The translations under genes and the position numbers were made by a program. Under the pieces are notes generated by a model. That model did no database searches. It saw only the letters and a program-made list of their open reading frames with translations, and was not told the origin of the DNA. From IMG/VR virus record IMGVR_UViG_2778261559_000019: DNA of 7,590 nucleotides, one strand, 5' to 3'. Numbering within the stretch: position 1 is the stretch's first letter; each line of letters begins with the position of its first letter. The DNA is from a virus. Taxonomy: Duplodnaviria; Heunggongvirae; Uroviricota; Caudoviricetes. Of the stretch, positions 4,849 to 6,057 are shown in pieces.

Positions 4849-5074
4849 CGCGAGTGCGTGTAACTTTTGATGTCATTCCCGTAGAAACACCGGACAAATT
4901 TTCGCTGACAGGTCATGCAGAAGGTATAAATCTGCAGATTATGGACAATTACGGATATCCGGCAAGAGCCGGAAAAAGCATGCCGCCTCTAATTCTCAGT
5001 GGAAGATGGACTTGATTATACTCATTGCATTGTCAGAAATAGTTATCCATTAAAGGCTGGCTATTCCAAACAGG

Positions 5075-5102
5075 ATGTTGATTACAAAAATGTAATCAAC
5101 AT
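5075..5102. promoter_or_regulatory. 28-bp perfect palindrome (ATGTTGATTACA-aaaa-TGTAATCAACAT), candidate operator upstream of the binding-protein gene
   Basis: Perfect 12-bp arms around a 4-bp AAAA centre, in an AT-rich non-coding region about 165 bp upstream of the 5267 start; a TATAAT hexamer lies at 5129-5134. Confidence 0.4.
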
Positions 5103-5266
5103 GTAAGGTTTATACTCTTCAATATGCGTATAATTTTCCTTATTTTGTTGACTTTAAATAACAAGCTATGCACGAGGTAAAGTCGGATAAGTTTATCTGG
5201 ATGTAATATATATTATTTGTAGTGTTTATAACTTTATTTCATGATAACCAATAAAAGGAGTTTTTT

Positions 5267-6025
5267 ATGAGGAACATAATGGCAGGTTTTTTAATATTCC
5301 TGTCTTCTGCTGCTTATGCTGATATCAATCTGTATGGTCCTGGTGGCCCGCATACAGCCTTGCTTGATGCAGCCAAACTTTATGCCGAAAAAACAGGTAT
5401 TATAGTGAACGTTCATTACGGCCCACAGAACAAATGGAATGAAGATGCCAAAAAAAATGCAGATATCTTGTTTGGCGCATCAGAACAATCTGCTCTGGCT
5501 ATCATTCGGGACCATAAAGACAGCTTCAGTGAAAAAGATATTCAGCCTCTTTATCTGCGAAAAAGTATTTTACTGGTAAAGAAAGGTAATCCTAAAAATA
5601 TCCGGAGTATTGACGACCTGACCAGACCTGGGATTGGCGTAATTGTTAATGATGGTGGTGGTACCAGTAATACATCAGGCACTGGCGTCTGGGAAGATAT
5701 TGCCGGACGTAAAGGGAATATAGAAACTGTCGCCGCAATCCGAAAAAATATTATTTTATATGCGCCCAATAGCGGAACTGCACGTAAGGCTCTTGAGAAT
5801 CAGCCTGGAGCAGATGTCTGGATAACCTGGGCTGACTGGGCAGCCAGTAATCCAGAAATTGGTGATGTCGTGGAAATAGCGCCAGACTACGTGATATGGC
5901 GTGATATGAACATTACAGTACGTCAGGATGCAAATGATGAAACCCGTCGATTTGCAGAATGGCTACAAACCGATGAAGCGGCGCCTGCATTCAAAAAATA
6001 TGGCTGGACCAGGAAAGGCACTTGA
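5267..6025 (+). CDS. secreted periplasmic solute-binding protein, ModA-like fold (orphan; no transporter partner in window)
   Basis: AAGGAG Shine-Dalgarno 6 nt upstream. Signal peptide MRNIMAGFLIFLSSAAYA with an AYA/D cleavage site and no lipobox cysteine. Overall layout (INLYGPGGPHTAL at the N-terminus, FKKYGWTRK at the C-terminus) parallels molybdate-binding ModA as recalled. GC content looks clearly lower than the flanking phage genes (estimated by eye). Confidence 0.85.
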   Translation: MRNIMAGFLIFLSSAAYADINLYGPGGPHTALLDAAKLYAEKTGIIVNVHYGPQNKWNEDAKKNADILFGASEQSALAIIRDHKDSFSEKDIQPLYLRKSILLVKKGNPKNIRSIDDLTRPGIGVIVNDGGGTSNTSGTGVWEDIAGRKGNIETVAAIRKNIILYAPNSGTARKALENQPGADVWITWADWAASNPEIGDVVEIAPDYVIWRDMNITVRQDANDETRRFAEWLQTDEAAPAFKKYGWTRKGT

Positions 6026-6026
6026 C

Positions 6027-6057
6027 ATCCTCGTCCTTCAGGACGTGGATTCTTTTT
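6027..6057 (+). terminator. rho-independent terminator of the binding-protein gene
   Basis: Hairpin ATCCTCGTCC-ttca-GGACGTGGAT (9 bp with one mismatch) followed by TCTTTTT, 2 nt after the stop codon. A second GC hairpin (ATGCCGC-gcca-GCGGCAT, 6062-6079) follows without a T-run. Confidence 0.6.

Follow-up and report, generated by a model that had tools for sequence, protein, structure and literature searches.

What is a solitary gene for a secreted binding protein doing between the replication genes and hok of a lambdoid prophage, where did it come from, and how could it serve the bacterium that carries it? The window considered here is the whole stretch of 7,590 nucleotides that was analysed. 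In it, an initial annotation had described at 4990-6057 an orphan ModA-like moron whose product might mask a receptor or modulate a host transporter. We find that the ORF at 5267-6025 is already known: it is the EHEC/EPEC virulence-associated gene paa/adfO, a prophage-borne adherence and colonisation factor, an identity that the initial annotation had missed. Taken as a whole, the explanation that we consider probable is that the locus is paa/adfO of an ompW-integrated lambdoid prophage, and that its product acts indirectly from the periplasm. The locus is organised as follows, with the strand given where one applies.

4381-6171: slot for variable cargo in the lambdoid prophage, from the DUF1627 gene to the hokD/sok locus, delimited by flank homology
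4594-5061, + strand: decayed fimbrial-subunit pseudogene, ending about 10 bp before the cassette
5062-5266, + strand: AT-rich leader (about 28% GC) with a presumed promoter, from composition and alignment
5075-6092, + strand: paa cassette (~1 kb: AT-rich leader, RBS, ORF, terminator), from plasmid matches
5075-5102: inverted repeat with perfectly matching arms (12+12 nt), ATGTTGATTACA aaaa TGTAATCAACAT, on the left border of the mobile paa cassette
5254-5260, + strand: ribosome-binding site (RBS) AAAGGAG, 6 nt before ATG 5267, read from the sequence
5267-6025, + strand: paa/adfO coding sequence, 252 amino acids plus stop, for an AcfC/PEB3/Paa-family periplasmic binding-fold protein, from the ORF list, Pfam and identity
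5267-5320, + strand: predicted Sec signal peptide, residues 1-18, cleaved after AYA, from hydropathy and the A-x-A motif
6024-6057, + strand: intrinsic terminator-like hairpin and five U, overlapping the stop codon, from folding and shuffles

That ORF 5267-6025 is paa (also named adfO and Z2053), an "adhesin" gene of the AcfC/PEB3 family, is virtually certain, because 100% identity to many independently annotated records makes a mis-assignment implausible. The DNA at 4990-6057 is 100% identical to annotated paa in the chromosomes of O157:H7, O26, O103, O111 and O145. The RefSeq record with 100% nucleotide identity names the gene paa and its product "AcfC family adhesin Paa" (WP_001449026.1), and 11 PPompW or Stx2a phage records label the identical CDS "Paa/adherence factor AdfO". 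Its host element is the ompW-integrated lambdoid prophage of EHEC and EPEC, known as CP-933O, O-island 57 or PPompW. The gene was found in 611 of 5426 complete E. coli genomes, with at least 99% identity in 552 records, and the entire window is matched by 556 genomes at coverage of at least 80%. In the literature, paa/adfO appears from 2003 and 2008 onwards, Paa is also assigned to porcine EPEC, adfO (paa) adjoins ckf in OI-57/CP-933O, and the two neighbouring genes serve as an OI-57 marker of highly pathogenic STEC/EHEC.

The structural features of the initial annotation held up wherever they were tested. The gene that it had placed within 4990-6057 is an intact ORF on the + strand, preceded by the strong ribosome-binding site that had been described. 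We take ATG 5267 as the start codon because this ATG and the RBS are kept in two plasmid alleles in which a second ATG, at 5279, is replaced by ATA. The N-terminus, MRNIM-AGFLIFLSSAA-YA|D, combines a positive n-region (R2), a hydrophobic core (residues 6-15) and an A-x-A site; A18-D19 is invariant, and the mature PEB3 crystal construct aligns from Paa residue 19. These features agree with the signal peptide that had been proposed and fit export of Paa by Sec to the periplasm.

The AT-rich upstream region is equally real: at 27.9% GC, the leader (5016-5266) is the lowest of all 251-nt stretches in the window. The ORF itself, at 43.9% GC and a GC3 of 34.8%, is AT-richer than its flanks (51-52% GC; GC3 of 47-67% in neighbouring genes), again as had been claimed. 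The alignment of prophage and plasmid alleles shows a conserved, perfect TATAAT at 5129-5134. A sigma-70 scan of 5023-5266 returned no full -35/-10 promoter and no consensus -35, and further hand-inspected -35/-10 pairs in the leader are weak or lie in non-conserved sequence; we infer that the leader contains a promoter. The core 22-mer of the inverted repeat at 5075-5102 had no chance match in 200 shuffles, and plasmid pSTEC388_3 carries an exact copy of the repeat. To our knowledge, this 28-bp palindrome does not resemble the consensus sequences of CRP, FNR or Fur. The dedicated terminator was also recovered, as a hairpin at 6024-6052 (dG -13.3 kcal/mol, z -2.3, a stability matched by 1 of 200 shuffles) with UUUUU directly after it at 6053-6057, and the hairpin falls within the block common to the plasmid alleles.

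The surroundings of the gene bear on how it was acquired. Upstream of paa lie the replication genes (DnaT-like O, lambda P and DUF1627), and downstream lies sok/hok (hokD = ckf). Homology to other prophages ends at about 4373-4380 and picks up again near 6172-6195. In the same slot, related prophages have QueH plus DUF977, an ORF6N protein or other unrelated genes. The gene is present or absent at this one locus in otherwise homologous prophages, its base composition is unlike that of the flanking phage genes, and among expression signals of its own the terminator hairpin is supported and the TATAAT conserved, with no -35 found by scan. The description of paa as AT-richer cargo between the replication genes and hok holds. 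When the segment 4380-6200 was used as a query against plasmids, the matches covered query positions 694-1714, and 5075-6092 was the only segment common to ETEC/STEC IncF virulence plasmids, at 86-89% identity. These alignments indicate that paa moves as a sharply bounded ~1 kb cassette between prophages and ETEC/STEC plasmids.

Immediately upstream of the cassette, RefSeq labels 4594-5061 "fimbrial protein, frameshifted; internal stop". A tblastn search with an intact homologue revealed a reading frame that is shifted twice, stopped once and truncated at both the N- and the C-terminus, and a Pfam search of the two fimbrial ORF fragments gave no match. We rejected the idea of a fimbrial operon with paa as its distal gene: intact homologues of the fimbrial gene sit in chaperone-usher operons, with the usher gene next in line and no nearby paa, and the plasmid paa alleles come without the fimbrial fragment.

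The family to which Paa belongs could be refined. The 252-aa protein matches Pfam SBP_bac_11 (E 5.5e-34), which upholds the label of binding protein, and the term "ModA-like" is correct at the level of the superfamily only. Membership in ModA itself was rejected, TIGR01256 giving 18.3 bits against a cut-off of 62.5 and other ModA models 11.7-17.7 bits against cut-offs of 253-470. Membership among the Sbp/CysP sulfate/thiosulfate-binding proteins was rejected as well, with 21.5 bits against 155.5 for the sulfate-binding model; together, the Sbp/CysP models (TIGR00971, NF008022 and NF008106) gave 19-22.6 bits against cut-offs of 155.5-308, in a local match of ~45 residues only. The true relatives are PEB3 of C. 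jejuni (E 1.2e-81, covering Paa residues 11-248; 54% identity) and AcfC of V. cholerae (E 3.5e-81, covering Paa residues 16-248; 52% identity). The alignment of Paa, PEB3 and AcfC holds ~100 invariant positions, including GPGGPH 24-29, SNTSGT 134-139 and NSG 168-170.

As the initial annotation had stated, the window has no transporter partner for Paa: neither the ORF list nor a motif screen yielded an ABC ATPase-like ORF. We extended the search to 24 homologous loci from Enterobacterales, Vibrio, Aeromonas, Campylobacter, Helicobacter, Endozoicomonas and others. An ABC ATPase lay within 3 kb of the homologue in none of the 24, and as a positive control the motif screen did pick up a genuine ABC_tran ORF, 3 kb away from the homologue of locus L012. 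No Pfam family recurred among the 136 neighbouring ORFs of the homologues, and the plasmid copies of paa are solitary as well. An MCP gene was absent beside paa in E. coli and from most homologous loci. Judging from these neighbourhoods, the transporter-less, solitary state is the family norm and not an accident of this prophage. The reading of paa as a fragment of a disrupted ABC operon was rejected on the same 24 loci, where homologues always adjacent to a transporter had been named as the observation that would favour it.

A related view, that paa is a non-functional remnant of a disrupted operon hitchhiking with the prophage, could draw on the adjoining decayed fimbrial pseudogene and on the missing partner genes. 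It retains practically no probability and is effectively refuted by conservation and expression: the ORF is undisrupted, with identity of 99% or more in the 552 records mentioned above, the RBS, start codon and terminator are kept across plasmid alleles that have diverged to 86-89% identity, solitary genes are the rule for this family, and the literature reports mutant phenotypes. The concern that the ORF might be untranslated was not borne out either, the gene being transcribed, and induced in EDL933 in the contents of the bovine rumen and rectum. That induction in gut contents would also suit nutrient scavenging, in which orphan Paa hands 3-phosphoglycerate, PEP or sulfate to a host-encoded transporter and thereby confers a growth advantage in the gut, as would the binding-protein fold, the weak local similarity to sulfate-binding proteins, and the listing of PEB3 with phosphoenolpyruvate and 3-phosphoglycerate. 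We nevertheless regard scavenging as very unlikely. The solitary state in all 24 sampled loci speaks against a part in nutrient uptake, one and the same cassette works in varied hosts from plasmids as well as prophages, and the published phenotypes concern adherence and chemotaxis, not growth.

These phenotypes (adherence, colonisation and, for AcfC, chemotaxis) lend no support to receptor masking or modulation of a host transporter as first suggested. They are compatible with a periplasmic binding protein that promotes adherence and colonisation indirectly, a mechanism that, as a whole, we rate as about evenly balanced between right and wrong. Paa would be exported by Sec, lose its 18-residue signal peptide and adopt a class-II binding-protein fold in the periplasm. 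The three loops invariant in PEB3 and AcfC would form its cleft, and the ligand could be a small anion, for example a C3/C4 acid in phosphorylated or carboxylated form, or a sugar bearing sulfate or phosphate. This ligand class is suggested by the phosphoenolpyruvate and 3-phosphoglycerate listed for PEB3 and by the binding of sulfated glycans to AcfC. Feeding no transporter of its own, Paa would then serve as a soluble receptor or accessory factor, acting through a host-encoded membrane partner, either a chemoreceptor or a secretion pathway. The model for such a role would be AcfC, which has been proposed to be a soluble receptor for the co-transcribed MCP Mlp8/AcfB and to signal through it. 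Deletion of AcfC is reported to leave cell adhesion unchanged, to lower chemotaxis towards mucin and to alter infectivity. The AcfC structure 4JB7 contains D-malate according to a 2025 review. Indirect action would also fit the adfO mutant, which is reported to show both lower adherence to HeLa cells and reduced secretion of several proteins. Against this mechanism, an AcfB-type partnership may be specific to Vibrio, because paa and most homologous loci have no adjacent MCP gene.

Alternatively, Paa could be a direct adhesin that, at the cell surface or in the medium, binds sulfated glycosaminoglycans or mucin in an early step of attachment. The name and annotation of paa say as much, and the reduced HeLa adherence of the adfO mutant can be read in the same way, but with the accompanying drop in secretion of several proteins the cause may be indirect. 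In ELISA, recombinant AcfC binds heparin sulfate, chondroitin sulfate and mucin; AcfC is, however, periplasmic by fractionation and gives no adhesion to Caco-2 or HT-29MTX cells, also when E. coli is made to express it, and PEB3 is described as a periplasmic glycoprotein. Paa has the fold of periplasmic proteins that bind small molecules, and we saw no lipobox, outer-membrane anchor or dedicated secretion signal in its sequence. On the other side, mice immunised with recombinant Paa are reported to be slightly protected. Antibodies to Paa are also said to reduce attaching-effacing lesions in explants. The immunisation and lesion data argue for some surface exposure of Paa, and hence for a direct adhesin role, which we hold to be possible but doubtful.

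A bolder extension of the indirect, periplasmic reading, and one that we think rather unlikely, is that the Paa cassette is a mobile plug-in periplasmic sensor, moving between prophages and virulence plasmids and bounded on its left by the palindrome. The 28-bp palindrome might then be an operator for a host regulator, and a recipient E. coli would gain a soluble receptor that recognises an anionic metabolite from the gut; docking of this receptor onto a resident chemoreceptor or secretion system would redirect settlement in the gut. If true, this would extend the AcfC/Mlp8 model of a binding protein plus MCP to a horizontally transferred receptor without a dedicated transducer. As a discovery the paa locus matters little. 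The additions of our re-analysis are modest: the transporter-less state of the family in all 24 sampled loci and the sharply bounded ~1 kb prophage/plasmid cassette.

Among known systems, PEB3 (Cj0289c; PDB 2HXW, 3FJ7, 3FJG, 3FJM and 3FIR) has in common with Paa the 54% identity, which extends over the whole mature protein, equal length, a signal peptide (predicted in Paa), the invariant cleft loops and a solitary gene. PEB3 differs in being chromosomal and N-glycosylated in Campylobacter, whereas Paa has no sequon at the aligned position (DSFSEKD versus DFNVS), and the ligands PEP and 3-PG are known for PEB3 only. No N-glycosylation pathway is known to us in E. coli. AcfC (VC_0841, PDB 4JB7) resembles Paa in its periplasmic binding fold, its location on a mobile pathogenicity element and its colonisation-factor phenotype; acfC lies directly downstream of the chemoreceptor gene acfB/mlp8, with which it is reportedly co-transcribed, whereas paa has no MCP neighbour. 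The ModA, Sbp and CysP proteins of ABC importers share with Paa a common Pfam level (SBP_bac_11) and local similarity near the anion-binding loops, but Paa has no permease or ATPase partner and scores far under the curated cut-offs. The paa locus of O157:H7 CP-933O contains the same gene between the same neighbours, the DUF1627 gene and the fimbrial pseudogene on the upstream side and hokD/ckf on the downstream side. The two loci differ in that the O-like replication gene is intact in the window and IS1203-interrupted in the O157:H7 example, and in that the downstream DUF968 gene of the window has two extra copies of a 19-bp repeat. Lambdoid morons such as bor and lom of lambda are likewise independent cargo of deviant composition and patchy presence, with their own signals, of which paa has the terminator hairpin and a presumed promoter; unlike them, paa occupies an early-region site, from the replication genes to hok, instead of a late-region one, and plasmids are a second vehicle on which the identical cassette circulates.

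The interval 4990-6057 is a known gene, paa (also adfO or Z2053). Its DNA is 100% identical to chromosomal segments of O157:H7, O26, O103, O111, O145 and other strains, at which the RefSeq annotation reads "paa: AcfC family adhesin Paa". This identification is consistent with the literature, which places adfO next to ckf (Z2054, a hok-like killer gene) in O-island 57, prophage CP-933O of strain EDL933. PPompW, whose phage records also carry the gene, is a lambdoid prophage integrated in ompW. The genes adfO and ckf serve as markers of highly pathogenic STEC, and ckf has always been found together with adfO in published work. 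We found paa in 611 of 5426 complete E. coli genomes (552 records at least 99% identical), and 556 genomes match the whole 7.6-kb window at a coverage of at least 80%. The location of paa on prophages or plasmids, in our data and in other papers, is at odds with one review that labels the gene "LEE-encoded". The initial annotation described the anatomy of the locus correctly, while missing the identity of the gene and overstating how unusual it is.

Features of the paa region (window coordinates)
4594-5061: fimbrial-subunit pseudogene, directly upstream of the paa cassette
5075-5102: perfect 12+12 inverted repeat with a 4-nt spacer, at the exact left boundary of the segment shared by prophage and plasmids
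5129-5134: perfect TATAAT, common to prophage and plasmid alleles in the alignment
5254-5260, plus strand: Shine-Dalgarno sequence AAAGGAG, 6 nt 5′ of the ATG at 5267
5267-6025, plus strand: paa, 252 aa
6024-6052, plus strand: hairpin directly after the stop codon, ΔG −13.3 kcal/mol, followed by UUUUU
6214-6363: sok match (Rfam RF01794, 103.9 bits)
ending at 6516: Hok/Gef ORF (PF01848, E 2.9e-23)

According to a six-frame ORF list, paa is the single long ORF of the interval, and the minus-strand ORFs lying beneath it encode only 41-72 aa. The start at 5267 chosen by RefSeq is the conserved one, because two diverged plasmid alleles keep the ribosome-binding site and this ATG in the alignment and have ATA in place of the in-frame second ATG (5279). 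The predicted signal peptide, MRNIMAGFLIFLSSAAYA, would be cleaved before DINLYGPGGPH; it combines a basic n-region with a hydrophobic core (residues 6-15), its cleavage motif is A-x-A, and the alignment of crystallised mature PEB3 with Paa starts at residue 19. The ORF has a GC content of 43.9% (GC3 of 34.8%) and the 251-nt leader (5016-5266) falls to 27.9%, the minimum among such windows across the 7.6 kb, versus 51-52% in the left and right flanks and a GC3 of 47-67% in neighbouring genes. A fold as stable as the terminator hairpin arose in only 1 of 200 shuffles. These observations fit the signal peptide and dedicated terminator, and confirm the strong ribosome-binding site and the AT-rich gene and upstream region, that had been proposed at the outset. 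Since a promoter scan detected no −35 element for paa, a promoter of its own, as the conserved TATAAT might indicate, is unproven. The inverted repeat, about 40 nt upstream of the TATAAT, has a core 22-mer that found no chance match in 200 shuffles and is kept as an exact copy on pSTEC388_3; the repeat may serve as an operator or mark a recombination breakpoint.

The placement of paa between replication genes and hok also stands: genes for a CI-like repressor, a Cro-like protein, a YdaT-like protein, a DnaT-domain O-like protein, lambda P and DUF1627 lie upstream, and 6214-6516 is a complete hok/sok type I toxin-antitoxin locus whose Hok/Gef gene is ckf. In related lambdoid prophages that lack paa, homology ends at ~4373-4380, where the DUF1627 gene is drawing to its end, and restarts at ~6172-6195, just 5′ of sok/hokD. 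This interval is a variable cargo slot, because such prophages hold unrelated genes there, among them QueH and DUF977 genes in APEC O1 and an ORF6N protein gene in another strain; paa is either present or replaced by other cargo in the same slot. The plasmid alleles (86-89% identity) are carried by IncF plasmids of ETEC and STEC from pigs, cattle and humans, and their common segment covers only ~5075-6092 of the window, from ~190 nt of AT-rich leader through the ORF to the terminator. On plasmids paa is also solitary, surrounded by IS elements, the ST-Ia enterotoxin gene, and replication or toxin-antitoxin genes. Upstream DNA unrelated to the paa leader precedes the more distant orthologues on the chromosomes of E. 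albertii (87%) and of Citrobacter (79%). In its variable presence, deviant composition and possession of a terminator, paa behaves as a moron.

The pseudogene upstream has two frameshifts and one internal stop, and ~21 codons are missing at its start and ~14 at its end. It shares ~86% DNA and 74-82% protein identity with the gene for the second subunit in intact chaperone-usher operons, which occur on an ETEC plasmid and, beside pgtABCP, on a dog E. coli chromosome. We rejected it as part of a paa operon: in the intact operons the usher gene, and not paa, comes next after this gene, and the plasmid paa cassettes lack the fragment, which therefore adjoins paa by an accident of recombination. 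The slot also contains a small ORF of 165 nt (4404-4568, a RefSeq hypothetical protein) between the DUF1627 gene and this remnant. A perfect 24-bp palindrome, CCGATATGGGAATTCCCATATCGG, occupies 6145-6168, between the cassette end (6092) and the restart of hokD-locus homology (~6172); it has no T-tract on either side and, among fetched loci, occurs only in two with the same prophage region.

Further downstream, a perfect 19-bp tandem repeat, CTGCCGTCCGGCATCGTCC, is present in 3.4 copies at 7476-7539, inside a DUF968/ydfU-like gene starting at GTG 7344. The two reference prophages, PPompW_132418 and that of O157:H7 PV15-279, hold one full copy only, so that the window is 38 nt longer and the DUF968 frame is shifted after ...GIVPAVR. 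Most genome matches 99.9% identical to the window are ~39 nt shorter and split in two pieces. The expansion could be real copy-number variation inactivating the gene, or an assembly artefact.

Paa does have the fold of a periplasmic binding protein (Pfam SBP_bac_11, E 5.5e-34), yet the description "ModA-like" holds at superfamily level only. Every curated ModA model failed by a wide margin (18.3 bits versus a cut-off of 62.5 for TIGR01256), as did all curated sulfate-binding models (21.5 versus 155.5 for TIGR00971). As judged by sequence, its real relatives among solved structures are C. jejuni PEB3 (E 1.2e-81, 54% identity) and V. cholerae AcfC (E 3.5e-81, 52% identity), both full length. The three proteins share ~100 invariant positions, including the loops GPGGPH (24-29), SNTSGT (134-139) and NSG (168-170). 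In PHROGs v4, Paa belongs to phrog_11834 (E 4e-176), an entry labelled "unknown function".

A motif screen found ABC ATPase motifs in no ORF of the window, in agreement with the initial annotation. We also examined 24 loci encoding relatives 44-87% identical to Paa, from E. albertii, Citrobacter, Edwardsiella, Aeromonas, Vibrio, Campylobacter, Helicobacter, Endozoicomonas, Desulfovibrio, Mucispirillaceae, Spirochaetes, Cetobacterium and others. Screening for Walker-A and ABC-signature motifs revealed no ATPase within 3 kb of the homologue in any of them. The objection named with the initial annotation, that homologues might always adjoin a cognate transporter, thus fails. The closest, 3.0 kb away in a Helicobacteraceae MAG, was confirmed by Pfam as ABC_tran, which indicates that the screen works. 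When 136 ORFs within ±3.5 kb in 20 of the 24 loci were compared to Pfam, no neighbour family appeared in four or more loci, and neither ABC_tran nor BPD_transp_1 was among the recurrent ones. V. cholerae acfC lies 51 nt downstream of the dCache-type MCP gene acfB/mlp8 (8073-9950 of fetched locus L014), C. jejuni peb3 between surE and a type III restriction enzyme gene, the E. albertii homologue between a DUF302 gene and an amidohydrolase gene, and the Edwardsiella homologue next to traT. The solitary state is a property of the AcfC/PEB3/Paa family. The MCP beside acfC, together with matches to cytolethal distending toxin A/C (3 of the 136 ORFs) and omptin (2 of 136), suggests that the family is often found among virulence genes.

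Anti-Paa antibody reportedly inhibits attaching-effacing lesions, which counts for Paa being a direct adhesin. Published immunisation of mice with recombinant Paa, giving slight protection, points the same way. The relative AcfC is dispensable for adhesion to Caco-2 and HT-29MTX cells and required for chemotaxis towards mucin. We consider a direct adhesin possible, though rather unlikely. That Paa hands its ligand to a distal transporter seems improbable. We give hardly any credence to a functionless remnant; paa is intact and conserved, is transcribed, and is induced in EDL933 in bovine rumen and rectum contents.

The reading that we prefer, with a confidence that is about even, is that Paa is exported by Sec, would bind a small anionic ligand in its conserved cleft, and may promote adherence in an indirect way, by means of a membrane partner supplied by the host; it is probably neither part of a transporter nor an adhesin at the surface. 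Ho et al. (2008), as cited in a review, describe an adfO mutant with less adherence to HeLa cells and lower secretion of several proteins. Among the known relatives, PEB3 has phosphoenolpyruvate (PEP) and 3-phosphoglycerate listed as ligands, and AcfC is a periplasmic protein that bound sulfated glycans in ELISA and was crystallised with D-malate. A published proposal treats AcfC as a soluble receptor that is read by Mlp8, the MCP with which it is co-transcribed.
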